A stretch of DNA of 64,000 nucleotides from Candidatus Omnitrophota bacterium (GTDB lineage: Bacteria > Hinthialibacterota > Hinthialibacteria > OLB16), in contig JACKFH010000006.1 of NCBI GenBank assembly GCA_020632575.1, forward strand, positions 10,117 through 74,116, given 5' to 3'. Below are positions 3,934-38,373 of this stretch, piece after piece. The position numbers and the translations under genes were made by a program. Position 1 is the stretch's first letter; every line of letters begins with the position of its first letter. The notes under the pieces were generated by a model that saw only the letters and a program-made list of their open reading frames with translations, was not told where the DNA came from and made no database searches.

Positions 3934-5235
3934 TCAGAGGTGGTAACTCCCGCGTCCCGGACGGGCCAGATAACGGTTGGCTTCCGGATCGTTCTTGAAT
4001 TCCCGTTTGACCGGATCCCAATGGAGTTTCCGCCCGACCAGATAAGAGATGTTCCCAATAACGCACATATCGGCGACCGCGACTCCATCCTCGATCGGCA
4101 TGATCGGTTGCTCGCGGGTCTTCATGCAGTTATAGAAATTCTCCTCGTGCCCGGGGCTCCGGAAAACCTGGACGCCGCCAGGAGGGGGCGAATAACGCAT
4201 CGCCTTGTCCTCGGTGTCGCATCCACCATCTCCGCCATTAACCAGGAGTTGGCCTTTTGTGCCGTAGTAGGTGGCGCCGAATTCTCTACCCGATTGCGGC
4301 ACACCAGGTTGAGCCCAGACCACTTTCAGGTCGGGATCTTTGAACTCGTAGGTGACCTCCATATCGATCGGGCAATCGAAGATTCCTTTCTTCGGAGGGG
4401 TCCCTGTCGCCTCGACCGTAACGGGGGCCGCGTCGCGACGGTTCAGCACCCAGAGGATGACACTAAACACATGCGCTCCGCGGTCGCGGATGTTGCCTCC
4501 GCCGTAATCCATGAACCAACGGAAAAAGAAGTGAGAACGCATCGGGTTGTAGGGAACCCAGCGTGTCGGTCCAAGCCACATTTCCCAATCGAGTTCCGGC
4601 GGAATAGGTTCATCCTTGACCCAGTCGCTCTCACGGTTGACCGAGTGCCAGCAGATCACTTCTTTGACATCACCAATCTCGCCATTCTGGACATAGGTCG
4701 CCGCAGCATGTGCGGCAGGAGTCGAGCGTCCCTGGCTGCCGACCTGAACGATCCGCCCATACCGCTTGGCGGCGTCGACCATCGCCTTGCCCTCTTCGAT
4801 CGTGTTGCACGCCGGCTTTTGGACATAGACATCGAACCCCGCCTGACAGGCGTGCACACACTGCAAACCATGCCAATGGTCCGGCGTCGCAATCACCATG
4901 GCGTCTATATCCTTACGCTCGAGGAGTCTGCGATAGTCGGTGTACTGGTCCGGGTAACGTCCCCCACGCTCGACCACCAGATCGCAAGCCTCCTTCATGT
5001 GGTTGGTGTCGACCTCGCAGATCGCCACCGAGTGATTGCGAATATGGCTACGACCCATACCGCCAACACCGATATGCCCGGTGATAATCCGATCGTTCGC
5101 CCCGGGCCTTCCGGGCGCCGCAAGGACCTCTCGCGGGATAATCGTGGGGACAGTGATCGCCGCCCCCGCTAAGGTCGTCTTATTAAGGAACGACCGCCGG
5201 GAAATTTTCCCGTTTTGGATAAGTTTTTCCGACAT
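3934..5235 (-). CDS. Gfo/Idh/MocA-family NAD(P)-dependent oxidoreductase with twin-arginine (TAT) signal (periplasmic sugar/glycoside dehydrogenase-like)
   Basis: RRSFLNKTTLAGAAIT TAT motif. Rossmann motif GHIGVGGMG. Good homology pattern for Gfo/Idh/MocA. GGAGG sits 6 nt before the ATG at 5235, so I prefer it over the listed start at 5250. Confidence 0.8.
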   Translation of the reverse strand: MSEKLIQNGKISRRSFLNKTTLAGAAITVPTIIPREVLAAPGRPGANDRIITGHIGVGGMGRSHIRNHSVAICEVDTNHMKEACDLVVERGGRYPDQYTDYRRLLERKDIDAMVIATPDHWHGLQCVHACQAGFDVYVQKPACNTIEEGKAMVDAAKRYGRIVQVGSQGRSTPAAHAAATYVQNGEIGDVKEVICWHSVNRESDWVKDEPIPPELDWEMWLGPTRWVPYNPMRSHFFFRWFMDYGGGNIRDRGAHVFSVILWVLNRRDAAPVTVEATGTPPKKGIFDCPIDMEVTYEFKDPDLKVVWAQPGVPQSGREFGATYYGTKGQLLVNGGDGGCDTEDKAMRYSPPPGGVQVFRSPGHEENFYNCMKTREQPIMPIEDGVAVADMCVIGNISYLVGRKLHWDPVKREFKNDPEANRYLARPGRGSYHL

Positions 5236-5372
5236 GGATAGGACCTCCATCCTTTGGAGTTTGGTGCTTCAAATACCTCTCGAAAACTCCCCTCCGTGTC
5301 ATTCCGACGTCAGGAGGAATCTGTCGGGAGGTTACATTTCAAAATACTTTCTGACTCTCACTCGGCGCATTG

Positions 5373-5540
5373 AGTCCGTTTCAACGGACTTCGATGTGCG
5401 TAGCCACGGAATTGATTCCGTGGCGGACTTAGTCGGTTTCTCGCGGTTGAATCAGACCGACTGATTCTTCGGCATCGATTCCAAACCGCCACGGAATCAA
5501 TTCCGTGGCTACGAATAGAGAGGCGTCTGTTAAAACAGAC
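5373..5540. repeat. MITE/REP-like intergenic element: two ~50-bp inverted arms, each with an AGTCYGTTTYAACRGACT hairpin plus a TGCGTAGCCACG-loop-CGTGGC hairpin
   Basis: Left arm 5373-5424 and right arm 5488-5540 are reverse complements. The same arm family recurs at 30071-30124. Confidence 0.6.
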
Positions 5541-5576
5541 TCTCATTCGCCCGGAGCGACACCATTTTAAACTTCC

Positions 5577-6341
5577 TCAATCAGGGCTTGCATCCTCCAC
5601 CACGGCTAAAATTCCCACATAATTGAAACCGATATCCTCGCGTCCCAAGCAGGGGGCATACATCCCGGATAAGGCGCCGTCAAGGTAAAGAGCGTCCTTG
5701 CATCCGAGCCGGTCCCTGAAGTAGGAGGCGAAGGTGAACAAGTTTACAGGTTTTTGGCTGATCGCGAAAACCACCTTGCCCTCCGGGTCAACCCCCACTC
5801 CGTTACGGACATAGACGCTATCGGAGCCCTCGTTGAATTTTGGATGAATTTCGCCCTTGCGGAGTAGCAAGGGGCCCGATTGGACCGCGAGGTCGGGGGT
5901 TGCCTCTTGAGCCTCGTACTCCGAGGTTTCCAGAATCTTCGCTTTCCCGTTGTCGATGAAAAAGACTCCATTCGGTTTCATCGAAAAGTTCCCCTTGCCC
6001 CCCTTTGATTTGTTTAATCGACGGAGGATCTCTCCGTTTTCGACATGGAGGCCAAGTGGAGTGTAATCCTCGGCGTAAATCCCGGAATTCGTGGCGAACA
6101 GGAGTTTCTTCCCGGACTCCTCCAGGAATGCTTTGAGATTCAGGAAAGTCTGGTGACGGGCTCCGTCGGGGTGTTTCCAGAACAACTGGAGAGACCGATC
6201 GGTTAGATCGACCCAGACCGTGTCGAACCCGGTCTGCTTAAACTGGAGACTCTCGCAACGCAGTCCTTCAGCGTCGGTCCACCCAGGTGTGATCGAAAAA
6301 ATGAGTAGGAGCGGGATCAAAAAAAAGTTCCTGAAACGCAC
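5577..6341 (-). CDS. Phosphodiester glycosidase family protein (DUF2233, NAGPA-like), secreted
   Basis: GTG start with signal peptide (RFRNFFLIPLLLIFSITPGWTDA). Family-typical length and composition (LYLDGALSGMYAP..). Confidence 0.65.
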   Translation of the reverse strand: MRFRNFFLIPLLLIFSITPGWTDAEGLRCESLQFKQTGFDTVWVDLTDRSLQLFWKHPDGARHQTFLNLKAFLEESGKKLLFATNSGIYAEDYTPLGLHVENGEILRRLNKSKGGKGNFSMKPNGVFFIDNGKAKILETSEYEAQEATPDLAVQSGPLLLRKGEIHPKFNEGSDSVYVRNGVGVDPEGKVVFAISQKPVNLFTFASYFRDRLGCKDALYLDGALSGMYAPCLGREDIGFNYVGILAVVEDASPD

Positions 6342-10800: not shown

Positions 10801-11452
10801 CTTCATGGCTCCAACCCCAACAGAAACTCCCACAGACACCCCGCAGGACACTCCGACGAACACTCACACCCCATCCGAGACCCCAACCCCAAGTCACACC
10901 CCGATGGAGCCGACCGATACTTTCACCCCGACATCAACCGAGACGCCTATTGAAATCCCCACCGACACCCACACTCCCACGCCAACCGAGACGCCCACGG
11001 ACACATCAGTTCGCGAAGGTCTTATCGCGATGGCGGACGCCTATCCCAATCCCGCGGTGAGCGGGCAGTTGGTAACGCTCGATGGAACGGCAAGCACGGG
11101 AGAGCAGGTCAATGGATATTCCTGGGAACAATTGGGTGACAATCCGATGGTGGTCATCACTGCGCCGAATAACGCAACAGCCACCTTCGTGGCCCCGATC
11201 GTATCGGTGACAGAGACCCTCACCTTTCAACTCACAATTTTTGGAGTGGGAGGCAGCCCTCCCTCGTTTCAAGATACAGAACAGGTGACGGTCATTGTTT
11301 TTCCTTTGGAACCCATCGATTTGGACCTGTTTGAAGACAATCGAATTGATTCCCGGGACCTCGTTCTATTCCTGGAGATGTTCGGGCCAAGCGGGCCTTT
11401 CAAATCTGAGGATATCTTTCGCTTTTCAATGGAATGGCTTTCAACCAGGTGA
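7829..11452 (+). CDS. Large secreted multidomain protein: N-terminal right-handed parallel beta-helix, internal double dockerin-like EF-hand module, cohesin-like domain, Thr/Pro-rich linker, PKD-like domain and a short dockerin-like tail
   Basis: Signal peptide. [34 protein letters not shown] beta-helix N-cap motif. Many GG..N turn repeats. [12 protein letters not shown] and [21 protein letters not shown] dockerin-like repeats. [20 protein letters not shown] cohesin-like segment. [30 protein letters not shown] linker. YSWEQ PKD-like segment. C-terminal [18 protein letters not shown]. Confidence 0.8.
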   Translation: [1207 protein letters not shown]

Positions 11453-25429: not shown

Positions 25430-27061
25430 TCACTTCAAGGGTTGCAGATAGATGTTTCGAAATTCGAGAACATCCCCATGACCGGCGAATCCAATGTGGC
25501 CGCTTTCACGTGCGGCGCCGGGGTGCTCGCTCCCGTCCATGGGTCCGTTCTTCAGTTCTTCATCGAGATTAATGTCCACGATGGTGAATCCGTTGACGGT
25601 GACCTGGATATCCCGCCCCTTGGCCACAACCTCCTCGGAATTCCACTCGCCGACCGGGTTCTTGAATCCATGGATGGCAGGCGCGATGCCATAAACCGAA
25701 CCGTGGTATTGCCAGGGTTTGAGATGGAGATATTTATCCGAGGTGTCCTCGAGGATCTGCAGTTCCATTCCCGCGTAGGCCGGGGTTCCCTCCAAAGGCG
25801 ACCGAATCGCGAGACCGTTGTTGGCGCCGGGAGTGAACTTGAAATCGAAACGGAGGACAAAATCGGAATACTCTTTTTCGGTGAACAGATTTCCCCCCGG
25901 CTTACAGAGCAAGATCCCGTCCCGCGCCTGATACCCTTTGGTGTCCCCCACCCAACCGGACAGGTCTTTTCCATTGAAAAGCGAAACAAAACCTGGCGGT
26001 AGATAATCCTCGGAATAGGGCCAAAGGTCATTCAGACGGACCCGCTGCTGAATCGCAACCTTGCCCGAACCATCGAGAACCTGTAAGCGGATCAGTGGAT
26101 CCTCCTGGGACCAATCGATATCGATCATCCCGAAATTATCGTCGAAATACATGCCGCCGACGCGGTGTTCGTTAACCTCGCTCCGCCAAGGGTGCCCCTG
26201 GTTTAAGCTGCTTGAGGTCACATCGTAGAGCGGGTATCCAACTTCCCCTTCGATTCGGTCAATTTCAGCGGTGTGTCGGTCTCCAGAAACGATCACCACC
26301 CCGTTGGCCTTGGTCTTTTTGATAAGGTCAAACAACCTCTGACGCTCGAGAGGGAAGTTCCCCCATTTCTCGAATCGGTGACGGTTGGCGATCACTTGTA
26401 CGCTGGAGGCGATAATCCTGAGATCGGCCGGGACTTTCAGTTGCTCCTCCAACCATGCCCACTGAGCCTCTCCCAGCATGGTGGACGCGGGATCGTAGTC
26501 GGGAACGTAGGAACCGCCGACTCCCTCGCCTTCTTCAAAGGGATTCTCCTCGGTCTTGAGCGGGCTTCTAAAGTAGCGTGTGTCGAGGAGGATCACCTGA
26601 ACTCGCTTTCCCTCCGGCCCGAAAACTTTCGCGTCATAAACGCCGTCGCTCTTCCGGCGGGGGGAGTCTTGAGGTTCGCCGAAGAAATCGAGAAAGACCT
26701 TTTGCGACTCCTTCTTCATGGGATAGTCGGCCCCGCCATCGTTGACCCCGTAGTCGTGGTCATCCCAGGTGGCCAGAATCGGGCAGGTCTCTTTCAATTT
26801 CTGATACCCGGGTTCGCTCGCCAACATGTTCCACTTCTCCTTGAGGACCTCCATGTCCTCCGAGTCTCCATAGATGTTGTCGCCAATAAATAGAAAGACA
26901 TCGGGATCGCTGGCGGCAATCGAATCCCAAATCGGTTGGGGTTGCCCCTGACGGGCGCAGGACCCGAAAGCAATCCTCGAAAGGACCCCTTCTTCGGCCC
27001 GCGCGGTTAAGGGAGTCAGAACAAACAGGATGGACAGAACAAAACCAAAGAATTTACGCAT
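25430..27061 (-). CDS. PhoD-like metallophosphatase fused to a C-terminal DUF1080 (3-keto-disaccharide hydrolase/GH16-like) domain, secreted
   Basis: Signal peptide. FIGDNIYGD and ATWDDHDYGVNDGG PhoD motifs. The C-terminus ...IGFAGHGDVLEFRNIYLQPL is a typical DUF1080 ending. Confidence 0.75.
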   Translation of the reverse strand: MRKFFGFVLSILFVLTPLTARAEEGVLSRIAFGSCARQGQPQPIWDSIAASDPDVFLFIGDNIYGDSEDMEVLKEKWNMLASEPGYQKLKETCPILATWDDHDYGVNDGGADYPMKKESQKVFLDFFGEPQDSPRRKSDGVYDAKVFGPEGKRVQVILLDTRYFRSPLKTEENPFEEGEGVGGSYVPDYDPASTMLGEAQWAWLEEQLKVPADLRIIASSVQVIANRHRFEKWGNFPLERQRLFDLIKKTKANGVVIVSGDRHTAEIDRIEGEVGYPLYDVTSSSLNQGHPWRSEVNEHRVGGMYFDDNFGMIDIDWSQEDPLIRLQVLDGSGKVAIQQRVRLNDLWPYSEDYLPPGFVSLFNGKDLSGWVGDTKGYQARDGILLCKPGGNLFTEKEYSDFVLRFDFKFTPGANNGLAIRSPLEGTPAYAGMELQILEDTSDKYLHLKPWQYHGSVYGIAPAIHGFKNPVGEWNSEEVVAKGRDIQVTVNGFTIVDINLDEELKNGPMDGSEHPGAARESGHIGFAGHGDVLEFRNIYLQPLK

Positions 27062-27726: not shown

Positions 27727-28842
27727 ATGGTTTCACTCTTAATCGTATTCGCCCTGATCGCAATTCTCATCTCCTTCCTCTGCTCGATGTGGGAGGCGGT
27801 CCTTTTGAGCATCACCCCCTCTTACGCCCAAATTAAACTCCAAGACGGAACCAAAACCGGGAAACTGATCGAAGCCTTCAAGCAGAACATCGACCGTCCC
27901 CTCTCGGCCATCCTGACCCTCAACACAATCGCCCACACAGTCGGGGCAATCGGTGTTGGACATCAGGCCGCGATGATCTGGGAGGAAACCAACCCCTTCA
28001 TCACCAATTTGGTCGTGCCTGTGGTCATGACCCTGGCGATTCTGATCCTTTCGGAAATCATTCCGAAAACAATTGGGGCCAATTATTGGCCCGAACTGGC
28101 GCCATTCACCGTTCAATCCTTATCGTTCATTATCACATGTCTCTATCCACTGGTTTGGGTTAGCCAACTCATCACCAAAGCCCTGAAAAAAGACAAATCG
28201 AGAAGCATCTTTTCACGAACCGATTTCCTCGCCATGGCCGAGATCGGAGTACGAGAGGGGCTCTTCGAACAGTCGGAGTCGGAGATTCTCCACAACCTGC
28301 TCCGGTTCAACACCATTCAGGTCAAGGATGTCATGACTCCTCGCACCGTGGTCAAAGTCGCTCCCGAGGAAATGACCCTTCAGGAGTTCTACGATCGGAA
28401 TAAAACCTTGCGTTTCTCTCGCATCCCGATTCACCAGGGCGAGCACATGGAGCATGTCACGGGATACATCCTCAAGGATGAGTTGCTTGGTAAATTGGTC
28501 CAGGACAAAGGGGAGGAACGTCTCTCTTCCATCAAACGCGAAATCCTGGTTGTCCATGAAAACTTCCCCATCCCCGAGATCTTCAGTCGATTCCTCGAAA
28601 AGCGGGAACACATCGCGTTGGTGGTCGATGAGTTCGGCGGCATGGAGGGGATCGTGACTATGGAGGATGTGATCGAAACGCTGCTCGGGATGGAAATTGT
28701 CGATGAGTATGACAGCACCGCCGACATGCAGGCCCTGGCCCGCAAGAACTGGGAAAGACGCGCCAAACACCTCGGCCTAATCGAGGAAAAACAAAACTCG
28801 GAAGAAAAGCGCAAGTTCGGGCACGACACCGAGAATGAGTGA
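27727..28842 (+). CDS. Hemolysin-family membrane protein (CNNM/DUF21 transmembrane domain plus CBS pair plus CorC_HlyC)
   Basis: N-terminal 4-TM DUF21, then a CBS pair, then a C-terminal transporter-associated domain (MEGIVTMEDVIETLLG). Confidence 0.8.
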   Translation: MVSLLIVFALIAILISFLCSMWEAVLLSITPSYAQIKLQDGTKTGKLIEAFKQNIDRPLSAILTLNTIAHTVGAIGVGHQAAMIWEETNPFITNLVVPVVMTLAILILSEIIPKTIGANYWPELAPFTVQSLSFIITCLYPLVWVSQLITKALKKDKSRSIFSRTDFLAMAEIGVREGLFEQSESEILHNLLRFNTIQVKDVMTPRTVVKVAPEEMTLQEFYDRNKTLRFSRIPIHQGEHMEHVTGYILKDELLGKLVQDKGEERLSSIKREILVVHENFPIPEIFSRFLEKREHIALVVDEFGGMEGIVTMEDVIETLLGMEIVDEYDSTADMQALARKNWERRAKHLGLIEEKQNSEEKRKFGHDTENE

Positions 28843-28867
28843 CCGCCCTAAGAGAGGCCCCCTCCCC

Positions 28868-29917
28868 ATGAGACTACCCCCCCTTTTCATCCTACCCGTA
28901 TTGCTATTCTTAACTCTGCCATGTCTGTCCCATGCGGAGAATGTTTTTCCCGGCGATCATTGGGAAACCCGATCTCCAGAGGAGGTGGGATTAAAAAAGG
29001 AGCCACTCGATCAACTCGCGAAAGATCTCGGCGGACGGGGGTGTGTCGTCAAGGATGGCTATCTTGTCCAAGAATGGGGGGACACCTCCGAGCGCGGAGA
29101 TTGGCTCTCCTCGGCCAAGCCGGTCCTCTCGACTCTCCTCTTCTTCGCCATCGAGGAGGGGCTTGTAGAGAGCGTCGATCAACCCATCGCTGAATTCGGA
29201 TGGGACTTGAAGGACAAGGACCAAGGGATCACGTTTCGTCATCTCGGGGCCATGACAAGTGGCTACGCTCGCCCAGAAGGGCCGGGTGAGGCCTTTGCCT
29301 ACAACGACTTCGCGATCCAACTCTACCAAAAAACCCTCTTCGATAAGGTTTTCAAGCAAGACCCGAAAGAGGCTGCCGAGCAACCCAACCGTTTGGGAGC
29401 ACTCAATCTCGAAAGGGGATTGAGTTTTCGCGAGGGCAACCGTCGTCTCTCAGCGTCGGCAAAGGATTTCGCGCGCATCGCCTGGTTCTGGCTGAACAAG
29501 GGCGCCTGGAACGGAACTCAGGCGCTTCCCGAGAAATACTTCGACGACTACCTGAAGCCGCTGGTTCCCAAGGACCTGCCCCACACCAAGAAGGCTGAAA
29601 CCGACGATTATCTCGGGATCGGCTCATTCGGGGGCGGGTCCGATCATTTCACCGAATTCGGCCCCGGCATCTACGGTTTCAATTGGTGGTTCAACTCAAC
29701 CGGCCGTGACCATCCCGACACACTCACTTGGCCCGACGCTCCCCCCGACGCCTACATGTCAATCGGCGCCGGCGGAAACTGTTCCATCATCATCCCCTCC
29801 GAGAGTCTCGTGATTGCCTGCGCCAAAGGAGATTGGGGAAAACTCAAAGCCGGCGTAAAGAACACACGAATGAACCATCACTTCCAACTCATCAATCAAG
29901 CGCTTGGCAAGGATTAG
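28868..29917 (+). CDS. Serine hydrolase, beta-lactamase/transpeptidase-like family, secreted
   Basis: Signal peptide MRLPPLFILPVLLFLTLPCLSHA. SxxK motif (SSAK). The listed start at 28835 overlaps the previous gene. Confidence 0.6.
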   Translation: MRLPPLFILPVLLFLTLPCLSHAENVFPGDHWETRSPEEVGLKKEPLDQLAKDLGGRGCVVKDGYLVQEWGDTSERGDWLSSAKPVLSTLLFFAIEEGLVESVDQPIAEFGWDLKDKDQGITFRHLGAMTSGYARPEGPGEAFAYNDFAIQLYQKTLFDKVFKQDPKEAAEQPNRLGALNLERGLSFREGNRRLSASAKDFARIAWFWLNKGAWNGTQALPEKYFDDYLKPLVPKDLPHTKKAETDDYLGIGSFGGGSDHFTEFGPGIYGFNWWFNSTGRDHPDTLTWPDAPPDAYMSIGAGGNCSIIIPSESLVIACAKGDWGKLKAGVKNTRMNHHFQLINQALGKD

Positions 29918-29992
29918 GGTCTAAGAGTCTATCAAGTGTCATTTCGAGCCTGCAGCGGCGTGGCCGCTGATTAGTAAAAGGAAACCGAATGC

Positions 29993-30124
29993 GTCATACC
30001 CGCGAAGGCGGGTATCCAGGGCAGGACCTCCCCCTCTGGATTCCCGCCTTCGCAGGAATGACTCCATCCCAGTCTGTTTCAACAGACTTTGTATTGCGTA
30101 GCCACGTCTCTTTAGAGCGTGGCG
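29993..30124. repeat. Intergenic palindromic repeat cluster: 25-bp imperfect inverted repeat GTCATACCCGCGAAGGCGGGTATCC / GGATTCCCGCCTTCGCAGGAATGAC, then AGTCTGTTTCAACAGACT hairpin, then TGCGTAGCCACG..CGTGGC hairpin
   Basis: The last two hairpins are the same arm type as the element at 5373-5540. It lies between convergent genes. Confidence 0.6.
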
Positions 30125-30167
30125 AGTTCGATCGCACCTGATGATTTGATCCTTCAATCGAGTTTTC

Positions 30168-31448
30168 TCACCCAAACCGCCCCAACCCCACCCCCTTCAA
30201 ATCCATCTCCGGCTCCTCACCCATCGCCAACCGCGCGGTCAGCTTCCCGGTGATCGGCCCAAGCAATATCCCGATCTTCGCGTGTCCCGCGGCGATAGTG
30301 AGGTTCTCGATCCCATTCGGTTTCCCAATCACGGGGAGTCCATCGGGAAGACAGGGACGCAACCCCGCCCAGGTCTCAACTGTCTCCCACTCTCCAAGGC
30401 CAGGCAGGAATCGGTGAATCGACTTGAGGATGCCATCAATGCGCCGAGGACTGATGGTGTAGTCGACACCCGTCAGTTCAAGAGTTCCCGCGAATCTAAG
30501 CAGGTCCCCCATTGGTGTGACTGCGACATAGGCCTCGGCGAGGATCATAGGGAGAGGAGGCATCTCTCCATCGAGTCGCACCGAAAGGCTGTACCCTTTG
30601 GCGGGTTGAAGCGGTATCCGCACCCCGATTTTTTTGAGGAGGGATGGAGACAAAGCGCCGGACGCCAAGACAACTCGCTCGCCATGAAAGTCCCCATGGT
30701 CGGTCTTCGCACTCGTCACCCTTCCCTTCTCGATTGCGAGTTCCGTGACCTTGGTTCCCGTATGCACCTCCACGCCAAGATGTCGAACCGTCCTCAAAAG
30801 TCGCTCCATCAGCCGGTCGGGGATCACATGAGCGCTCTCAACATGATGCACGCCCCCCGCGATATCTTCCGAGGCGCTTGGAACTCGTTCACGAACCTTC
30901 TTCGAATCGAGGACTTCCATCTCGAATCCCTCGGACTCGAGGTGCTTGGCCTCCTCAATCCCATTCTGGAAGTTGGCCTCCTCCTCATAGACATAGAGAA
31001 GGCCCTTGCGCGTATAACAGTCATCCCCGATGACCCCAGCATCCTCGAGTTCTCGATAGAGTCTCGCGCTCGCGACATTTAGTTCGAGCAGAGTCTTCGA
31101 AGCCGCTTGCACATGAGCCTCGGTGCAATGACTCCGAAACGCCCAAAGCCAACGAAGTAGATCGAGGTCCCAGCGCGGCCGAATATAAAAAGGACTTTCC
31201 GGGTCGAGCATCCATTTGAGTCCCTTCCCGATGATGGATGGCGCGGCGAGAGGAACGATATGACTGGGCACGACAAGACCCGCGTTGCCGTGGGTCGCCC
31301 CGGAACCGATTTCGTCCTTCTCCAATAAGAGGACGCTCACGCCCGCTTTGGCGGCATAATAAGCGGTGCAAAGTCCCATGATCCCGCCGCCGATAATCAA
31401 CAGATCGGCTGAATTCGACTGCGATAAATGACTGAATTGTTTCTCCAT
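30168..31448 (-). CDS. FAD-dependent oxidoreductase (D-amino-acid dehydrogenase DadA-like)
   Basis: LLIIGGGIMGLCTAYYAAKAG FAD-binding motif. ATG at 31448 with a GGAGAGGG RBS. Confidence 0.7.
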   Translation of the reverse strand: MEKQFSHLSQSNSADLLIIGGGIMGLCTAYYAAKAGVSVLLLEKDEIGSGATHGNAGLVVPSHIVPLAAPSIIGKGLKWMLDPESPFYIRPRWDLDLLRWLWAFRSHCTEAHVQAASKTLLELNVASARLYRELEDAGVIGDDCYTRKGLLYVYEEEANFQNGIEEAKHLESEGFEMEVLDSKKVRERVPSASEDIAGGVHHVESAHVIPDRLMERLLRTVRHLGVEVHTGTKVTELAIEKGRVTSAKTDHGDFHGERVVLASGALSPSLLKKIGVRIPLQPAKGYSLSVRLDGEMPPLPMILAEAYVAVTPMGDLLRFAGTLELTGVDYTISPRRIDGILKSIHRFLPGLGEWETVETWAGLRPCLPDGLPVIGKPNGIENLTIAAGHAKIGILLGPITGKLTARLAMGEEPEMDLKGVGLGRFG

Positions 31449-31542
31449 TTTTCCCTCTCCCCCTCTTCCGTAAAGCTCATAATTCAAGATACTTCCATGA
31501 ACCGAGAGCCGCCCAGCAAATCCTGTCTTTCGGCCTCTCCCA

Positions 31543-31548
31543 AAGGAG
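31543..31548 (+). promoter_or_regulatory. Shine-Dalgarno AAGGAG for the GTG-initiated beta-helix gene
   Basis: 7 nt upstream of GTG 31556. Confidence 0.55.
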
Positions 31549-31555
31549 TTTCAAC

Positions 31556-33445
31556 GTGCAAACTTTCACCCCATCGATGGCATGGCGTTCGGTCGTCTTT
31601 ATCCTGACAACAATCGCGGCGCCCACTTTCTCTGCCACTTTTGTGGTCGAGAATGTCAATGACGCCGGCTCTGGCTCCTTGCGCCAGGCTATTTTAGACG
31701 CAAACGCTTCGATGGGCGAGGATTTCATCGGGTTCAATATTCCGGGATTCGGGCCCCACACCCTCTCGCCTCAATCCGGCTACCCAGAGATCACCGAGGC
31801 GGTCACCATCGATGGCTTCACTCAGGGCAGCCAAACAGCGAGCCCGGATGACGACGCCATCCCCAATAGCAACCTCATCGATCAACCCATCAACGCTGTC
31901 TACAAGATCGAACTTGACGGGATCAATGTGTTCAATTCCTCCGGACTCACCATCTCTGGAAGCGGCGTCACCATTCGAGGTTTGGTCATTGGCCGGTTCC
32001 GACACAACGGAATTCTCATTCAGGGCGGGGTCAACATTTCGATCGAGGGGTGCTTCATCGGCACAAGTGTTGGCGGCTCCATGGGGCGAGGAAATTTCGA
32101 GGACGGAATCAACCTGAGCGGGGCCGAGAATTGTCGGATCGGCGGACAAAATCCCGCACAGCGCAACCTGATCTCGGATAACGACGATGGGATCGATATT
32201 CAGGACTCCTCCACCGGCATCCTGGTGGGAGGGAACTTCATCGGGATCAATGCCTCTGGATCTCAGGGACTCGGAAACAGTCAGCAAGGAGTGAAGGTCG
32301 AGAATTCGTATGACAACATAATTGGAGGATCCACCTCACAATTGAGAAATGTGATTTCCGGCAACTCTCTCGCTGGGGTCGGACTTATCGGAGGTTCCAG
32401 TGGGAATACCGTTCAAGGAAACTATATTGGCGCCACGCCCAATGGCCTTTTTTCGATCGGCAACCTCGGCGAGGGAGTCGAAATCGATGATTCCCCCAAC
32501 AACCTCATCGGCGGGACCGATGGAGTCACTCCGGGAGAGGGCTGCAACGGCGCCTGCAACCTGATCTGTGGCAACAACCAGGAAGGACTCGCGATCGATG
32601 GAACCGGAGCGGTCGAGAACCGTGTCTCGGGGAATTATATTGGAACGGACCAGGCCGGAACCGCGAACCTTGGTAACGGGTTCGATGGCATCCTCATTGC
32701 CGTTGGCGGCGATGGAACCTTCATCGGCGGGACCGATCCCGGCTCTGGAAATGTGATAGCGCATAGCGGCCAGGATGGCATCGCTCTCGGCGGCGATGCG
32801 GGAACCGGCGTCTCGATTATCGGGAACTCCATTTACGATAACGGAACCCTCGGGATCGATCTGAATAACAATGGTCTCTCCGAGAACGATCTTGGATCCC
32901 CGCCCGATCAGGACACCGGCGCCAACAACCTCCAGAATTTTCCGGTTCTCTCCTCCGCAACCGTTCAAGGCGGGGAGACGCATATCACGGGAACCCTGGA
33001 AAGCCTCCCTGATTCGGATTTTCGAATTGAGTTCTTCGCCAACTCGCAATGCGATGGAACCAATCATGGCGAGGGAGAGCGGTTCCTCGGGTTCGAATTG
33101 GTTTCTACCGACAGTCTGGGCGCAGCCAACTTTGCCGCCACTCTTCCCGTCGCCGCCTCGACCGAGGCATTCATCACCGCCACCGCCACACTCCGGGACA
33201 CCCCCAACAGCCATGCCGACACCTCGGAGTTTTCAATGTGCCTCCCTGTTTTAGCGGATTGTCTCTGCCCCTCTCCCATTCCCGATTTCGTGGTGAACGG
33301 CCGAGTGGATGGGGCTGATCTGATGGCGCTTCTGCAAGCGCTCCATGATGGGGAGCCCGCCATCAATGTAAGCGGTGACGCCAGAATTACGGCACAGGAT
33401 TTCTTCCAGTTCGCGTGCTGCTGGTACGACACCGAAATGCCCTGA
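31556..33445 (+). CDS. Secreted right-handed parallel beta-helix (NosD/CASH-type) repeat protein with Cys-rich dockerin-like C-terminus
   Basis: Signal peptide. About 15 Gly/Asn-rich beta-helix coils (GNxIGxxxxG). C-terminus VNGRVDGADLMALLQAL. Confidence 0.75.
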   Translation: MQTFTPSMAWRSVVFILTTIAAPTFSATFVVENVNDAGSGSLRQAILDANASMGEDFIGFNIPGFGPHTLSPQSGYPEITEAVTIDGFTQGSQTASPDDDAIPNSNLIDQPINAVYKIELDGINVFNSSGLTISGSGVTIRGLVIGRFRHNGILIQGGVNISIEGCFIGTSVGGSMGRGNFEDGINLSGAENCRIGGQNPAQRNLISDNDDGIDIQDSSTGILVGGNFIGINASGSQGLGNSQQGVKVENSYDNIIGGSTSQLRNVISGNSLAGVGLIGGSSGNTVQGNYIGATPNGLFSIGNLGEGVEIDDSPNNLIGGTDGVTPGEGCNGACNLICGNNQEGLAIDGTGAVENRVSGNYIGTDQAGTANLGNGFDGILIAVGGDGTFIGGTDPGSGNVIAHSGQDGIALGGDAGTGVSIIGNSIYDNGTLGIDLNNNGLSENDLGSPPDQDTGANNLQNFPVLSSATVQGGETHITGTLESLPDSDFRIEFFANSQCDGTNHGEGERFLGFELVSTDSLGAANFAATLPVAASTEAFITATATLRDTPNSHADTSEFSMCLPVLADCLCPSPIPDFVVNGRVDGADLMALLQALHDGEPAINVSGDARITAQDFFQFACCWYDTEMP

Positions 33446-33493
33446 CCTTGAGGGTGAGAGCGATTTGACTCAAACGCCGTTCAAACGGTCGGT

Positions 33494-34075
33494 TCACTCA
33501 TTCGCTTTCTTCCACTCGATGGTCAACGCCCCTCGGAAATCGCCCATTTCGTATCCGGTCGCTTTATCTTTTGGGTAATGGACGGCCAAAGATTCCTTCA
33601 GTTCTGATGAAAAGGTTTCGGGATCTCCATGACACATCAGGCAAAGGGACTTTTGAATGGCGATCGGAAAAAGGACGGTGGTCATGGTGGCGCTCTCGAT
33701 CACATCCGGTTCAGGGGAGGGTTTCTCTTTCCAGTTCTGTTCCATCCCTTCCAACCACTTGCGTTGTTCCTCGGTCGGCGTGTGCAATTCCGGATTGCGG
33801 GTTTTGAGAGTGATACGTCGGACTCGGAGGATGTCCTCATGCTTTTCCCGAAAATCATTCTCGACCTGGGCCGACACCTCTTTGCAAACCTCGATCGCCC
33901 CTGCGGGTCCCCCTTGAGAAATCGCGACACTCAGCTCCTTCATGAGCGTTTTCATGAACTCCTGGGCGAGGGGTTTGCTCCGTTCCAGGGGCGATTGCGA
34001 CTCGTCGGCGACCGCATCACACAATGGCAAAGTAAGAATTCCAACCAGAAGTATAGGGAAACTCTTTCTCCACAT
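33494..34075 (-). CDS. DUF3365 (Tll0287-like) secreted heme-binding protein with CxxCH motif
   Basis: Signal peptide. CLMCHG c-type heme site. ATG with AAGGAGG 9 nt upstream. Confidence 0.65.
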   Translation of the reverse strand: MWRKSFPILLVGILTLPLCDAVADESQSPLERSKPLAQEFMKTLMKELSVAISQGGPAGAIEVCKEVSAQVENDFREKHEDILRVRRITLKTRNPELHTPTEEQRKWLEGMEQNWKEKPSPEPDVIESATMTTVLFPIAIQKSLCLMCHGDPETFSSELKESLAVHYPKDKATGYEMGDFRGALTIEWKKANE

Positions 34076-34158
34076 CGAATTCGTCCTCCTTCGATTAGCG
34101 GGCGGGTTTCGATTGTATCAATTCGGCCGTCTCTCAGCGATAGAAAAGTGAGGGCGGG

Positions 34159-35166
34159 TTATTTCGCGTCGTCGGCGTAGATATCGAAAACGAGTTGCAT
34201 TGCTTTGAGGGCTTGCTCGGAATTACCGGACTCCACAGGCGAGTCCTCGGTGATGTGACGGATAAAGTCGGCGACCTCGAGCTCCCACGAGGGATCGGTG
34301 TCGAAGTAGATGATTTCCTCGCGCGGTTTTCCGGTGGCGAATCCCTCATCGAATTTCTTACGGGCGATTGTCACCGTCTCATCCCCATAACTCCGAGTCG
34401 AAGAGAGGATTCCATTGACCGAAAGATACCCCTCGGACATGTAGATCTCGAGATTAAATCGGTGCTTCCACTGTGTGCTCGAACTGTGAAGCATCGCGGT
34501 TCGCCCCTCGGTGTCGCGCAGGATAGCAAACACATTGTCCTCGACATCGACATTCCAGAAATGGGTCGAAACGAGGCTCTTCACCTCGACAAAATCGCCA
34601 CAGAAGAGACGGAATAGATCGAGCATGTGGATCCCCTGATCCAGAAGGATGCCGCCGCCGCAAACCTCTTTCGAACTGCGCCACTCCTTTTCGAATCCCT
34701 CGCCACCGGACTTTCCGTAGACGCCTCTCAAAAACAGGATCTTCCCAAGTCTTCCAGTTTTCACGATGCGTTGCGCCTCTTGTATGCCGCCGTGATACCG
34801 GTGATTGAACCCGAATTTGAGTTTCAATTCGGGATTTCTCTTTTCGGCCTCGATAATGGCTTCAACATCCTCAACAGTCCGACCCGGCGGCTTCTCGCAA
34901 AAGACATGTTTCCCAGCATCGAGGGCGGCGATCACCGCGTCGGGGGTAAACCGGTTCGGAGTCGCCACAAACACCGCGTCGACATCCGAGTCGATCACCC
35001 TCCCGATATCCGTGAAACATTCGACCTCGGGGTAATCCTTATGAGTCGATATATTCGGATCGGCGCCTACAGTCACCTGGGCTTGAGGGTGACGCGCGAT
35101 TTCCCGGGCCCTTGTGAGCCCCATCTTTCCAAGGCCGATCAGGCCAATCTTCAGGACATCGTTCAT
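34159..35166 (-). CDS. Gfo/Idh/MocA-family NAD-dependent sugar dehydrogenase (WbpB-like)
   Basis: IGLIGLGKMG Rossmann motif. ATGA overlap with the upstream gene. Confidence 0.8.
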   Translation of the reverse strand: MNDVLKIGLIGLGKMGLTRAREIARHPQAQVTVGADPNISTHKDYPEVECFTDIGRVIDSDVDAVFVATPNRFTPDAVIAALDAGKHVFCEKPPGRTVEDVEAIIEAEKRNPELKLKFGFNHRYHGGIQEAQRIVKTGRLGKILFLRGVYGKSGGEGFEKEWRSSKEVCGGGILLDQGIHMLDLFRLFCGDFVEVKSLVSTHFWNVDVEDNVFAILRDTEGRTAMLHSSSTQWKHRFNLEIYMSEGYLSVNGILSSTRSYGDETVTIARKKFDEGFATGKPREEIIYFDTDPSWELEVADFIRHITEDSPVESGNSEQALKAMQLVFDIYADDAK

Positions 35167-36167
35167 GATTTCTTTTTGGCGGCGACCCTTAAGTGTGAAC
35201 TCAGCCGGTGCTTCTGAAGAAAGGCTTGAAAATCCTCGTGCGCCTCCGCGTCACGATGAGTCAGAAGGTAAGAGATCCATGCGGGAATCCGGATATTCGG
35301 ATCTTGTTCCACCGTGTGATGAACAAACTGGAGGTCGAGCTGACCCGGGGTGCTGAGTTCGAGGATTTCCAAACCAGCCCGGTCCAGAAGTTTTTCGATC
35401 CCATCAATCGACATCAGATTCAAATGTTCGGGAACAAAAATGTAAGGGGCGTTTCCACCGAGCACCTGTAAGTCAAAACCGCTGACCGTTCGGGTGGTGA
35501 AAAAGAAGATACCTTCATCGGAAAGCATGTCTTTCACCGAGACCAGATAATCGTATGGGGAAAACTGATGTTCGAGTTTCTCGAAGGAACTCACCGCGGT
35601 CTGTTCGCTTGGTCTGGATTCAGCGACGTTCACCTTCAAATCCGAATACACACTATCTAACGGGGAAACCGGTTCAAAAGTTGTCAACGCGTCAAAGAGG
35701 TCGAATGACGCCATCTCCTCGAAGAGTTGGGGGAGAGTGGTTCCAATATCCGTGTAGCTTTTGGAGGTCGATTGAGTGGACTCATCGACTATTCGCCCCA
35801 TCCAATTGGCGTTGGCGGCAATCTGGTGACGGTGACGGGCCTGCGCGGTGTTCCTCGCAAGGTGATCCACTCGATACCGACTTGCCTTGGATTCGGAATA
35901 GTAGTGGGCGAGAGCCTCATCGGTCGGCCGTGGGGAGACATAGATGCTCTTGCAGTCCGCACATAAGAGATAGGAAAACCCGTACTTTTCGAAAACCTTT
36001 GAGTTGAGGTGCGATCCACAAGCCGGGCAGTCGATCTCCTCGACCTCTCCCGGATCGAGAAAGTACGTTTTCGACTCCTCGATGCTGAGACGTTTGAACT
36101 CGGACATGAGAGTTGATGGCCGGATCTCCGACTCCTGCAGCCCGCTGGACACCGCGACATGTCTCAT
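35163..36167 (-). CDS. Zinc-ribbon (Methyltransf_13-like) plus methyltransferase-like protein with a degenerate SAM motif
   Basis: CPACGS..CADCKS N-terminal Zn ribbon. There is no clear GxGxG. GGAGG 6 nt upstream of ATG 36167. Confidence 0.55.
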   Translation of the reverse strand: MRHVAVSSGLQESEIRPSTLMSEFKRLSIEESKTYFLDPGEVEEIDCPACGSHLNSKVFEKYGFSYLLCADCKSIYVSPRPTDEALAHYYSESKASRYRVDHLARNTAQARHRHQIAANANWMGRIVDESTQSTSKSYTDIGTTLPQLFEEMASFDLFDALTTFEPVSPLDSVYSDLKVNVAESRPSEQTAVSSFEKLEHQFSPYDYLVSVKDMLSDEGIFFFTTRTVSGFDLQVLGGNAPYIFVPEHLNLMSIDGIEKLLDRAGLEILELSTPGQLDLQFVHHTVEQDPNIRIPAWISYLLTHRDAEAHEDFQAFLQKHRLSSHLRVAAKKKS

Positions 36168-36212
36168 GATTCGCCTCCAATTTGCCGGTCGCAACCCGTG
36201 GATTCTATCATA

Positions 36213-37082
36213 CTATCGCCTGCTTGCCGCGAGAAACAGGCTGCTCCCAAAAGGTAAATTGACACCAAGACGAATTAGAGATTGCTCCAAGGCCAATGCG
36301 CTTCCGAGAAGGCCGTTGGAAAAATCTCCGATTCGGTATTCGCTAGCCGGATCGAAATCTCCAGGGTCCTTCGGCATTCTTAATCTGGACAGTAGAAAGA
36401 GCGGAAGAAGAACGGTCACAAAAGAGGTGCATCTTGAGACCTTGAATCCTGCGCGCGCGACCTTTTCAACAAGTTCTTTTCGAGTGTACCTGCGTTTGTG
36501 GTAAGAGAAATCATCCACAACGCTCCAGAGAAATGGATGTTGAGGGACCGTGATCAGGATCCCCCCACCCGGCCTAATCGCCCGGTGAATTTCCGACAAG
36601 ACTGCCTCATCTTCTTCAATATGCTCGAGCACATCGAATGCCCCGATAACATCGAACTCTTCGGTAAAAGGAATCTTACGCCCGTCCATTTGAAATACGT
36701 CAGCGTCTGGAACACGTCTCTTAGCAAACGGGAGGCTTTCCAATGTGATGTCACTCGCTGAAAGTCGGAGATGGGGAAAATCCTTACGGACCCCGCTGAG
36801 GACGAATCCGGTTCCACAGCCAAGTTCAAAATAGTCTGCCGCCTCGGGAAAGAACCTCTGAATTGCCCACACAATCAATCGGTTGCGATTTACAAACCAG
36901 AAGTGTTTCTCCTCATCCCTGGCCATCCGCTCGGAGAAATCTGAACTCCAACCGTCATTGATTTCGGCGAGATCGGGTGCAAAGACTCGGATTCCCTCTC
37001 GCTCTTCTGGGTGGAAACCACAATCCGGGCAAATCCAATCGCTGTTTTCGAAAAGGCCGGCGCATTGGAGACACCGTCTCAC
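36213..37082 (-). CDS. Class I SAM-dependent methyltransferase with N-terminal zinc ribbon
   Basis: CLQCAG..CPDCG ribbon. ELGCGTG motif I. GTG start with GTGA overlap of the downstream stop. Confidence 0.75.
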   Translation of the reverse strand: MRRCLQCAGLFENSDWICPDCGFHPEEREGIRVFAPDLAEINDGWSSDFSERMARDEEKHFWFVNRNRLIVWAIQRFFPEAADYFELGCGTGFVLSGVRKDFPHLRLSASDITLESLPFAKRRVPDADVFQMDGRKIPFTEEFDVIGAFDVLEHIEEDEAVLSEIHRAIRPGGGILITVPQHPFLWSVVDDFSYHKRRYTRKELVEKVARAGFKVSRCTSFVTVLLPLFLLSRLRMPKDPGDFDPASEYRIGDFSNGLLGSALALEQSLIRLGVNLPFGSSLFLAASRR

Positions 37083-37465
37083 GTACGACTCCCGATGATC
37101 AATCCGGCGACAATGAGCGCGAGGCCGATGACTTTTTCCTTGGTGAGCGCTTCGCCGAAAATAAAGGCGGAACTGACGCCAACCAGGATAAAGGAGAGAC
37201 TCATGAAGGGATAAGCATAGTTCAATTCAAACTTGGTCAGAGCGGCCATCCAACAGAAAAACGCGCCAAGACCAGCAGCAAAACAACTGAGAATCCAAGG
37301 ATTGGGAACGATGGAGGCGAGGAAGAGAATCTTATCGAACAATTCTTCCGGCGGTTGACCCGCTTCATTCACCTTCCATTTCAAAACTAGGTTTCCGTAG
37401 ACGGTGAACATCACCGCACCAAAGATGAATACATAACCCATAGCGCTTGCTGTCCTTTCAATCAC
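37079..37465 (-). CDS. Small 4-TM DMT/SMR-like membrane protein (ArnE/ArnF- or GtrA-like candidate lipid-linked sugar flippase)
   Basis: About 120 aa with four hydrophobic helices. Start GTG 37465 (GTGA coupling) or ATG 37441. Confidence 0.55.
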   Translation of the reverse strand: MIERTASAMGYVFIFGAVMFTVYGNLVLKWKVNEAGQPPEELFDKILFLASIVPNPWILSCFAAGLGAFFCWMAALTKFELNYAYPFMSLSFILVGVSSAFIFGEALTKEKVIGLALIVAGLIIGSRT

Positions 37466-38373
37466 CTCTCATCGAGAATCGCGAGACCGAATCCCGACTG
37501 ACCATAGCCATTCCCATTGTAAAGCATGTATAAATGTCCCTGATGCCGCAAGACAAAAGGGTATTCAATCATTTCTGAATCCCAGCCGGAATCCGAAACG
37601 TCGATGCCCGTCTCCTGGAGCCGGAGTTCCCAATCTTCCCCATCGGGGCTGAATGCGTGACCGATTCGATAGGTGGTCCCTGTCCCGCTTCGATAGGAAA
37701 ACCACATTCGACACTCGCCACTTGGCTCGCGGACAACTGTCGGGCGTGAAAATGCCTGTGCCACGCCAACCTCGTAGGGAACTGAAACTCCGAGTCGACT
37801 CCACTGATGACCGTCTTCGGAGGTCGCCGCTTTGATCACGTGGACCATTTCTCCATTCCCGGCATCCCAGTTCACGGTCGAACCGTACCACATTCGATAA
37901 TTGTTATTCCCCTCACCCTCCACCCAGGGATAGGAAAGACTGATCGGGTCGGTCTTATCCAAGGGCATGAAAGGTCGATCACCTTCCAGTTCAAGCGAAC
38001 CCTCGGAGGTCAAGATGAGACGACCGACTTCTCCTCGCCAATGCTCTCCCGGCGGGCATTGCCAGCCCATAAAAAGAATATATCGATTCCCATCCGCCTC
38101 GTAACAGTTCCCGATGCTAACTCCATGGGAATAGAAACTCCCATCAGCGCCATGCTCGAAGACCGGTTCTTGGTGGACATACACGGTTTTCCCCTTGGCG
38201 ATGTCAACATCGACATAGCCCACTGAAGACCGTTTCTTGTCGTCGCGGCCGCTATAGAAAACACGAAAGAGATCGCCCTCCAAATGGATTGGGAGCGGGT
38301 TGGCGGCGTGACTCACCAGTTTCGGGTGAAGGGGTTCCGGGGCGTAAAGATTCCCCAGCTTTTTCCATTTCAT
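37462..38373 (-). CDS. Five-bladed beta-propeller glycosidase/glycoside-phosphorylase-like protein (GH43/GH130 superfamily)
   Basis: Composition and W/G-rich blade motifs. Cytoplasmic (no signal peptide). Confidence 0.45.
   Translation of the reverse strand: MKWKKLGNLYAPEPLHPKLVSHAANPLPIHLEGDLFRVFYSGRDDKKRSSVGYVDVDIAKGKTVYVHQEPVFEHGADGSFYSHGVSIGNCYEADGNRYILFMGWQCPPGEHWRGEVGRLILTSEGSLELEGDRPFMPLDKTDPISLSYPWVEGEGNNNYRMWYGSTVNWDAGNGEMVHVIKAATSEDGHQWSRLGVSVPYEVGVAQAFSRPTVVREPSGECRMWFSYRSGTGTTYRIGHAFSPDGEDWELRLQETGIDVSDSGWDSEMIEYPFVLRHQGHLYMLYNGNGYGQSGFGLAILDER

Follow-up and report, generated by a model that had tools for sequence, protein, structure and literature searches.

Introduction

The closest described systems to the repeat studied here are the REP, BIME and REPIN sequences with RAYT of Escherichia coli and Pseudomonas fluorescens, which are short extragenic hairpins with an unpaired tag at the foot (PMC3116915). 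Their stems are compensatory, and they mostly form inverted dimers with a short spacer that can be folded into one long hairpin. They are non-coding and non-autonomous, lie between convergent or same-direction genes, and their families are usually specific to a genus. A role as terminator or in mRNA 3′-end protection has been proposed for many of them.

The GTAG-tagged REP super-family consists of tagged stem-loops of 6–13 bp in head-to-head or tail-to-tail dimers, often inside longer palindromes. Its members have been described from Cyanobacteria, Chloroflexi and the PVC group. Among them are "double palindromic" repeats, found in P. putida and P. fluorescens, that combine a degenerate GTAG unit with an adjoining, unrelated stem-loop (PMC3733652). 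The CGTC-tagged REPs have a CGTC or TGTC tag, a stem of 8–9 bp starting with AT, a loop of 4–5 nt and a CCA tail, and occur mostly as head-to-head dimers. The Neisseria repeat dRS3 is the same as CGTC-1, and a dedicated transposase is not known (PMC3733652).

In cyanobacteria, the SDR repeats have been reported only in Nostocaceae. Elhai and co-workers reportedly found in 2008 that SDRs have a compensatorily kept hairpin and sit inside mini-transposons. The Nezha MITEs of Anabaena and Nostoc are 130–170 bp long (PMC3184786). The ends of IS200/IS605 elements and their ORF-less derivatives (PATE) carry subterminal hairpins with conserved feet. Recognition of these hairpins takes place on one strand, in single-stranded form, and no target duplication is produced.

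Here we describe REP-like repeats of two kinds that are clustered on the 3′ side of genes in an uncultured bacterium. The main family, named F1, is a 55-nt unit of hairpin A, linker, hairpin B and a GGCGG foot. It resembles the REPs and REPINs in its short extragenic hairpins, compensatory stems, inverted dimers, gene context and non-coding, non-autonomous nature, and its three copies in the window (the whole 64-kb stretch of DNA that was analysed) carry the tag GTAG at the foot. Unlike a REP, which has one hairpin, F1 has two hairpins and a conserved linker of 11–15 nt. Moreover, most members carry TTAG, TGAG or TAAG in place of GTAG; no RAYT association was found; and F1 spans several phyla with an 18-nt hairpin A that is almost invariant. 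Its breadth is like that of the GTAG super-family, with whose groups GTAG-12, -15 and -16 it was compared by description only, the F1 tag being degenerate in most copies (PMC3733652).

Genomic Context of the Two Sites

The window has a GC content of 54.5%. Its proteins are 95–98% identical to those of the MAG GCA_020430105.1, labelled "Candidatus Omnitrophica bacterium", and their remoter homologues carry the Hydrogenedentes label. Site 1 is a 341-bp spacer between a NAGPA-like gene (5577–6341, − strand) and a gene for a Gfo/Idh/MocA oxidoreductase (3934–5235, − strand). Site 2 is the convergent spacer between a beta-lactamase-like gene (28835–29917, + strand) and a gene for a DAO-type oxidoreductase (30168–31487, − strand). 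Both sites are located downstream of a gene.

No transposase gene was found in the window by tblastn or by a Pfam scan of 37 ORFs (best 25 of 79 families), nor was the RAYT or IS200-like gene for which an initial annotation of this DNA had proposed a search. No recombinase or integrase gene was present near either site. A tRNA or tmRNA as integration site was rejected, since the window contains neither, and a CRISPR reading was rejected because there was no array. Furthermore, no Rfam family matched in the window at the gathering threshold, and an E-value scan of nine unit-bearing loci gave sub-threshold chance matches only.

Three Copies of a Two-Hairpin Unit

F1 was present at 5373–5426 (+ strand), inverted at 5486–5541 (− strand), and at 30071–30125 (+ strand). 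Hairpin A of these copies reads AGTC-YGT-TTYA-ACR-GACT (family form AGTC-NNN-TTYA-NNN-GACT) and is followed by a linker of 12–15 nt ending in CGTAGCC, by hairpin B (GCCACG...CGTGGC) and by GG or GA. In unit 1, hairpin A (5373–5390, + strand) is AGTCCGT-TTCA-ACGGACT, with a seven-pair stem and a TTYA loop. The linker TCGATGTGCGTA (5391–5402, + strand) occupies the family's conserved linker position, with the GTAG tag at 5400–5403, and hairpin B, GCCACGGAAT-TG-ATTCCGTGGC, spans 5403–5426 (+ strand) together with the GG of the GGCGG foot; the inner stem pairs at this position covary family-wide. The inverted unit 2 has hairpin A at 5541–5524, the reverse complement of GTAG in its linker at 5512–5509 (− strand), hairpin B at 5509–5488 and a foot that extends to 5486. 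In unit 3, hairpin A (30071–30088) is followed by the linker TTGTATTGCGTA, GTAG at 30098–30101 and hairpin B at 30101–30123, whose distal stem differs (CTC/GAG) with the pairing kept. Between both arms of site 1 lies a central A-like hairpin, AGTCGGT-(18-nt loop)-ACCGACT (5431–5462), which was also present in the predicted fold and gave a weak covariance-model match of 20.2 bits at 5465–5395 (− strand).

The inverted pair was confirmed and lies well beyond chance expectation. The arms at 5399–5426 and 5486–5513, comprising the linker end, hairpin B and the foot, were complementary at 28 of 28 positions; beyond this core the difference between the linkers (TCGATGTGCGTAGCC and CCTCTCTATTCGTAGCC) leaves them alike but no longer complementary. 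Hairpin A of units 1 and 2 is distinguished by one compensated C-G to T-A change, and unit 3 showed 83% identity to the first arm over 36 nt. The hairpin-A pattern AGTCYGTTTYAACRGACT, with up to three mismatches, was found at these three sites only, giving 6 strand-hits compared to 0.20 expected (0 of 100 shuffles). The three copies reached 63.5, 48.5 and 46.7 bits (E 1e-13 to 1e-9) with a covariance model of 61 family members, the inverted unit matching at 5544–5480 (− strand) with E 5e-10 and unit 3 with E 1.4e-9. With the filters off, this model detected no further full copy in the 64-kb window. The initial annotation had described inverted arms at 5373–5540, two stem-loops in each arm and a recurrence of the arm at 30071–30124, and all of this was confirmed.

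The region 5365–5550 was predicted to fold into one long hairpin, with a DNA folding energy of −61.9 kcal/mol (z = −12 versus shuffles). The pair has the A-outside orientation with a spacer of 59 nt. Neither a terminal repeat beyond the units nor a target duplication was detected at the site-1 pair, so that the check for duplications proposed in the annotation gave a negative result. A 12-nt direct repeat, GACTCTCAYTCG, was rejected as a target duplication and treated as chance, because it is not adjacent to the left arm.

CGTC-Type Palindromes Beside the F1 Units

The second kind of repeat, F2, also has three copies. F2a (29992–30018, + strand) reads CGTC-ATACCCGC-GAAG-GCGGGTAT-CCA, with an 8-bp stem, the loop GAAG and the tail CCA. 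Its inverted partner F2b (30037–30063, − strand) has the tag AGTC, and the tags point outward, which makes the two a head-to-head dimer. F2c (5297–5323, + strand) is degenerate, with a TGTC tag and an imperfect stem (ATTCCGAC-GTCA-GGAGGAAT). The pattern GTCATWCC-N(8-14)-GGWAT occurred three times (5298–5320, 29993–30015 and 30040–30062) against 0.04 expected, and the second palindromic unit of 25 bp reported in the initial annotation is thus real. The annotation had also recognised a tgtcattccgac motif near 5290–5340 as shared with 29938–29950. The kinship stood, whereas the best match proved to be the palindromes at 29992–30063, to whose family the motif at 5297–5323 belongs; the stretch at 29938–29950 looks like a decayed half-copy of the palindrome.

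Judged from their tags, stems and tails, these 25–27-nt palindromes belong to a family that is already known, the CGTC-tagged REPs of the Neisseria dRS3 type. Like CGTC-1/dRS3, F2 has a CGTC or TGTC tag, an 8-bp AT-initial stem, a 4-nt loop, a CCA tail and a head-to-head dimer. The AGTC tag of F2b is outside the variants given for CGTC-tagged REPs, and the host, an uncultured bacterium labelled Ca. Omnitrophica/Hydrogenedentes with three copies in 64 kb, belongs to a phylum absent from the published list (PMC3733652). The novelty claimed for this palindrome was not sustained, as it fits the published definition (PMC3733652).

Conservation of Structure and Sequence

Alignment A1, comprising 61 units aligned with MAFFT, was the source of covariance model R1. 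A larger alignment of 138 distinct copies was fitted to the covariance model and hence leans towards structure; 94.7% of its cells were paired, and both-sided changes were seen in 14 of the 16 pairs. The covariation score was 0.478 compared to 0.149 in shuffles (reached in 0 of 500) and at most 0.09 with partners slid. Alignment A1 gave the same picture for hairpin B. The alignments show both stems to be maintained by compensatory substitution. The initial annotation had suggested a hairpin-rich intergenic repeat family and had named structural covariation and further genomic copies as its tests; the covariation was strong and further copies were present in other genomes, which supports this view.

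Several parts of the unit are conserved in sequence. In hairpin A these are the outer four pairs (AGTC/GACT), and in hairpin B the outer three (GCC/GGC) together with the GG that follows the hairpin; the loops TTYA and TTNA and the linker are conserved as well. The AGTC/GACT foot was near-invariant (at least 134 of 138 rows at each position), and the central loop base is free to vary. The cyanobacterial consensus at the linker position is TTAGCTATTAG, and the family consensus is AGTCCGTTTYAACGGACT-TTAGCTATTAGCC-stem-TTNA-stem-GGCGG. With 22–23 nt and a stem of 9–10 pairs, hairpin B is a short extragenic stem-loop within the limits of a REP (20–40 bp, 6–13-bp stem). The tag GTAG was present in all three window copies, in the relative L126 described below and in 14 GC-rich metagenomic copies. 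In the 138 cyanobacterial rows, column 32, which is aligned to the G of GTAG, was T in 128 and G in none, giving T-N-A-G. Among the same 138 copies, G-T/T-G mismatches numbered 52 and A-C/C-A mismatches 19, which suggests selection for the fold on the strand of the unit itself. This signal is modest, because 18 of the 52 fall at one pair in one subfamily. The combination of a near-invariant 18-nt hairpin across phyla with a freely covarying second hairpin is unusual.

Distribution of F1 in Other Genomes

The hairpin-A pattern was scanned against one genome per species (596 Gb), giving at least 117 stretches. Matches to hairpin A alone mean little, because such a short pattern gives about 100 chance hits in 596 Gb. 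However, 105 of 124 among the matches listed had a hairpin downstream, nearly all in the A-linker-B layout. This one scan gave more than 100 copies of the F1 architecture, among the matches listed mostly from cyanobacteria, including Nostoc, Dolichospermum, Brasilonema, Leptolyngbya, Phormidium, Symploca and others. In 720 kb of cyanobacterial loci, the covariance model matched 180 copies with E ≤ 1e-5. Outside cyanobacteria, full units were present on a complete Armatimonadota chromosome (L004), in Anaerolineales (L018, three copies), Chloroflexota (L081), KSB1 (L091) and Latescibacterota (L097), and in Thiotrichaceae and a related gammaproteobacterial MAG. This range, which takes in Leptolyngbya, Phormidium, Symploca and non-cyanobacterial phyla, is unlike that of the SDRs.

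A GC-rich GTAG variant was present in metagenomes, where the pattern scan was non-specific, with real units in 14 of 120 loci. Three contigs binned as Acetobacteraceae carried the Nostoc form of the element, and we suspect that they are mis-binned. The 21 hairpin-A matches in viruses were all AT-rich single hairpins without hairpin B, and viral carriage of F1 was rejected.

Neither 10–14-mers of the F1 linker and MITE ends nor a name for the widespread two-hairpin family was found in the literature searched. Nevertheless, public cyanobacterial genomes contain the two-hairpin unit in abundance, several other phyla have it too, and the family cannot be called novel, as the initial annotation had done. 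Since it is common in cyanobacteria and scattered over phyla, we regard it as an ordinary selfish or structural repeat and not as a new class of element.

Arrangement of the Units and Neighbouring Genes

The arrangement was analysed for 154 units located by regular expression, with an ORF threshold of at least 90 aa. Only 10 of them were inside ORFs; outside ORFs, 42 were between convergent, 61 between tandem and 12 between divergent genes. Neighbouring units formed 50 A-inside inverted dimers with a typical gap of 13–20 nt, 3 A-outside pairs and 7 tandem pairs. As in REPINs, the inverted doublet that folds into one hairpin is therefore the main form. The pair in the window also folds as one long hairpin, yet it is of the rare A-outside type and thus has an uncommon orientation. 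Relative to the gene ending beside them, 14 single units were co-directional and 21 anti-directional. This lack of orientation bias argues against a strand-specific RNA role, and together with the absence of an Rfam match it speaks against the structured RNA that the annotation had considered. The 140 ORFs flanking the units matched 264 Pfam families, and no transposase was among the top 25 of these by member count (at most 4 members each). F1 copies were thus shown to avoid genes and to favour 3′ intergenic space, without a linked gene.

F1 Dimers Inside Larger Mobile Elements

The core of a 168-bp Nostocales element is an F1 dimer. This element has the ends CAGGGCTATTTCATTC, sharp borders and a 9–10-bp flank duplication in 14 of 20 copies. 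As judged from these borders and duplications, the element is a genuine MITE, and the comparison of its copies shows the F1 dimer moving as the core of a MITE in this order. F1 resembles Nezha and the SDRs in that the dimer forms the body of such a MITE; it was set beside Nezha and SDR1–8 by description and not by sequence, and the 168-bp element is compatible with Nezha in a comparison by size only. The CAGGG ends and the duplications of 8–10 bp presumably fit the ISAs1 family. The 9–10-bp duplication belongs to the larger MITE, and its length points to a DDE transposase and not to an HUH enzyme.

F1 was also found inside an element of about 270 bp with ends GCGAATTCTATGAGACTGTTGG in Nostoc NMS8, and the dimer was found inside a frame with ends CAATGCCAGTGAGTTAAGC in GC-rich metagenomic copies. 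Thus at least three terminal-repeat frames, unrelated to one another, enclose the dimer, and often there is no frame at all. In a Phormidium locus (L030), the copies had no common flank past the GGCGG foot, and in the GC-rich copies contiguous conservation stopped within a few bases of CCGCC/GGCGG. This nesting matches the published insertion of REP dimers within longer palindromes, which is often observed (PMC3733652).

No pair of Nostocales MITE ends 1–3 kb apart, as in a full-length IS, was present in the loci examined, and blastn gave no match of this MITE to plasmids. Between distant unit pairs in two loci (L007 and L036) there were ordinary genes and no autonomous element. An autonomous F1 element was rejected, as there was neither transposase enrichment in the flanking ORFs nor a distant pair of MITE ends. 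Four RAYT proteins (E. coli RayT and three others) were used as tblastn queries against about 1.9 Mb of unit-bearing DNA, and a single gene was found (L103), none being in the window. This gene was flanked by other, classical GTAG REPs (GTAGGGTGGGTAGGAGCGAAGC...) and not by F1. Similarly, a cyanobacterial RAYT gene on a Kovacikia plasmid (L130) was flanked by other GTAG REPs (GTAGGATGCGTTAGC...), and with the covariance model no F1 was detected closer than 3 kb to any of the three plasmid RAYT genes that were searched. A RAYT-linked membership of F1 (REPtron) was rejected for the DNA searched, as both RAYT flanks that were read carry other REPs. In addition, no tnpA or tnpB was found beside about 150 F1 units among the top 25 of the 264 flanking Pfam families, and F1 mostly forms symmetric inverted dimers and not the distinct left and right ends of IS200/IS605.

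Two proposals of the initial annotation were thus upheld in part. The term MITE-like is apt for the 168-bp element of Nostocales but not for the pair in the window, which has neither terminal repeat nor duplication and is of the rare A-outside type. The proposed REP/RAYT substrate is useful as an analogy, whereas the window holds no RAYT gene and the RAYT flanks carry different REPs. Since the association with RAYT was tested and not found, the analogy stands only for how F1 might work.

Comparison with Relatives of the Window

Relatives were reached by homologue searches, in which three window proteins had no exact record. In a close relative (L119/L120, GFO protein 89% identical), the spacer between the NAGPA and GFO genes at site 1 was 142 bp and contained no unit. 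The 199 bp by which it falls short of the 341-bp spacer are close to what the F1 pair (169 bp) and F2c (27 bp) add up to. This comparison shows the cluster of the window to be absent from the orthologous site, which is too diverged for defining the borders of an insertion. In a nearer relative (L121, 94% identical), the contig ended inside hairpin A, which was the same as in the window at 15 of 15 nt. Moreover, a 34-nt stretch over the F2c core was the same as in the window, compared to about 55–60% identity in the intervening spacer and 80.6% in coding DNA. The identity of hairpin A and the F2c core may reflect constraint or homogenisation.

At site 2, the relative L126 was 98.3% identical to positions 30069–37911 of the window, with the unit present (43.5 bits). 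The homology ended at 30069, and the far flank of L126 (DUF4279, pheS, rplT and others) was absent from the window. Its linker, TCGATGTGTGTAGCC, differed from that of unit 3 at 5 of 10 positions and from the site-1 linker at one. Being nearer to the site-1 linker, it places the real junction within the unit and close to the hairpin-B foot. Such a junction fits recombination between dispersed F1 copies. The break in synteny may also be an assembly chimera, as both sequences are metagenomic.

Discussion

The reading that we favour is that F1 belongs to a widespread family of non-autonomous hairpin elements that is shared horizontally and whose usual replicating form would be the inverted dimer, comparable to a REPIN. 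On balance, we think it probable, though by no means assured, that F1 spreads as non-autonomous DNA whose folded single strand is recognised by an enzyme encoded elsewhere. The obvious candidate for an enzyme acting in trans on the folded unit would be an HUH/Y1 transposase of the RAYT or IS200 kind. F1 would be carried as a passenger in this genome, with side effects such as recombination among its copies.

In Nostocales the dimer is carried by a MITE, and F1 might simply be the inner sequence of MITEs moved by DDE transposases that recognise the outer terminal repeats, so that the copies in the window would be decayed, inactive fragments. The 9–10-bp duplications in 14 of 20 copies of the 168-bp element, the two other elements, with ends GCGAATTCTATGAGACTGTTGG and CAATGCCAGTGAGTTAAGC, and the Nezha MITEs of 130–170 bp in Anabaena and Nostoc (PMC3184786) are in agreement with such an origin. 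However, the frames are unrelated and often missing, the flanks in the Phormidium locus are not shared, and the contiguous conservation of the GC-rich copies ends close to the foot. A model in which only the terminal repeats are recognised does not require compensatory stems or fixed loops and feet, and the window has neither terminal repeat nor target duplication; we consider this explanation unlikely, although it deserves some weight. The F1 dimer itself may be mobile, for which the one indirect sign is the absence of the cluster from site 1 of L119/L120, the known target duplications being those of the larger MITE. A bolder form of this idea, in which F1 is a self-contained mobile entity defined by its fold of two TTNA-looped hairpins and a linker, read as single-stranded DNA, moved in trans, spread across phyla and inserted preferentially into the centres of other palindromic elements, is quite doubtful. 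If it were true, F1 would be a parasite of MITEs and not a piece of them, and its spread would link Cyanobacteria, Chloroflexota, Armatimonadota, Thiotrichaceae and the Omnitrophica/Hydrogenedentes-labelled lineage.

A use to the host as RNA, as a terminator or in the protection of mRNA 3′ ends, is improbable. It would be consistent with the larger number of units between convergent than between divergent genes (42 versus 12), with the position of both window sites downstream of a gene and with the tolerance of G-U pairs; furthermore, hairpin A with TTTGTATT at 30071–30098 was flagged as terminator-like, and in GC-rich variants a T run follows straight after hairpin A. On the other hand, single units lie in either direction (14 co-directional, 21 anti-directional), most copies have no U-run, and no Rfam family matched. 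The T-rich linker of unit 3 is lost in the 98%-identical L126, which has TCGATGTG there, and a transcript coming from the upstream gene at site 1 would reach unit 2 first, where hairpin A is followed by CCTCTC. F1 as an intrinsic terminator was rejected, since unit 3 was the only unit flagged, its linker is not kept in L126, and there is no orientation bias. Least probable of all, in our opinion, is a duplex-DNA site for protein binding or recombination, be it BIME-like, for a site-specific recombinase or for phage integration. In Neisseria, dRS3 is a phage integration target, and the palindromes beside F1 are CGTC REPs of this type; the sequence-conserved feet and loops would fit protein recognition, and synteny with L126 ends at 30069 with a chimeric unit. 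But that breakpoint could come from ordinary homologous recombination between repeats or from a chimeric assembly, neither site has a recombinase or integrase gene nearby, and the variable central loop base and the excess of G-T mismatches favour a folded single strand over a duplex palindrome.

For the window itself, the repeats are non-coding clutter in two intergenic regions and of little consequence. They explain a length difference of 200 bp from relatives and probably one rearrangement breakpoint. For the family, the pattern of hairpin A across phyla implies that a recognition protein is shared or that transfer between mat-dwelling bacteria is frequent, and intergenic repeats common to Beggiatoaceae and cyanobacteria provide a precedent (PMC4679880). 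The covariance model could be used for a census of the family and for a search for its enzyme.

Structure of the third repeat copy and its surroundings

The third copy of the 55-nt two-hairpin unit (window 30071-30125, + strand) was compared with the locus of a 98.3%-identical relative (L126). Collinearity between the two stops within this unit, at window 30069-30106 versus L126 7843-7806. Over this interval, the linker of the third unit looks as if it had been exchanged for that of another copy. Such a break could reflect a rearrangement by recombination between repeats or an assembly chimera.

Just past the stop of the gene at 28835-29917, the segment at window 29937-29975 contains a CGTC-type tag with a partnerless half stem, TGTCATTTCGAGC, followed by the GC hairpin CAGCGGC-GTG-GCCGCTG. 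These may represent a decayed repeat and a terminator-like hairpin.

In the relative L119 (2830-2880; also L120), the unit-less "empty" spacer between the NAGPA and GFO genes carries four tandem 12-nt repeats, CGGAATTTCAAG, CGGAATTTCAAA, CGGAATTCGAAC and CGGAAGTTCAAAC, possibly an operator-like array, which is absent from the window. In the 94%-identical relative L121 (143-514), an additional 123-aa ORF without a Pfam match is inserted in the stretch that separates the small palindrome from the GFO gene. A repeat of about 27 bp, derived from the upstream region, flanks this ORF on both sides.

Repeats within coding regions

Periodic 9- and 12-nt repeats (CCGCCGATTCCACCGCCAATTCC...) were found at window 50517-50668 within a 1294-aa ORF (49598-53482, - strand), where they presumably encode a glycine-rich repeat. 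Three copies of a 17-nt motif, TTCCATTGAAAAGCGAA, were found in the window against 0.02 expected, at 11418-11434 (-), 25969-25985 (+) and 61889-61905 (-), each time within an ORF. Since one of the three copies is located where a 3-keto-disaccharide hydrolase domain begins, the motif may not be a DNA element but the trace of a common protein motif of the LFNGK type.

Elements in other genomes

At the gammaproteobacterial locus L103, three exact 60-bp tandem repeats (1-180), each with a classical GTAG REP, precede the RAYT gene, and two further REPs follow it (750-850). The arrangement is that of a textbook REPtron and has no relation to the two-hairpin unit.

The copies of the Nostocales 168-bp MITE in Nostoc sp. 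CHAB 5836 (L001, L009, L055, and L116) were 260-291 bp long. Alignment revealed that in L009 and L116 the MITE is interrupted by another small element, which has inverted ends of its own (ACACTTGGGTTAAGC...), and thus forms a nested MITE. The Nostoc form was also present, nearly unchanged, in L024, L043, and L063 of a MAG labelled Acetobacteraceae (Green_W.bin.2), which may be mis-binned cyanobacterial contigs.
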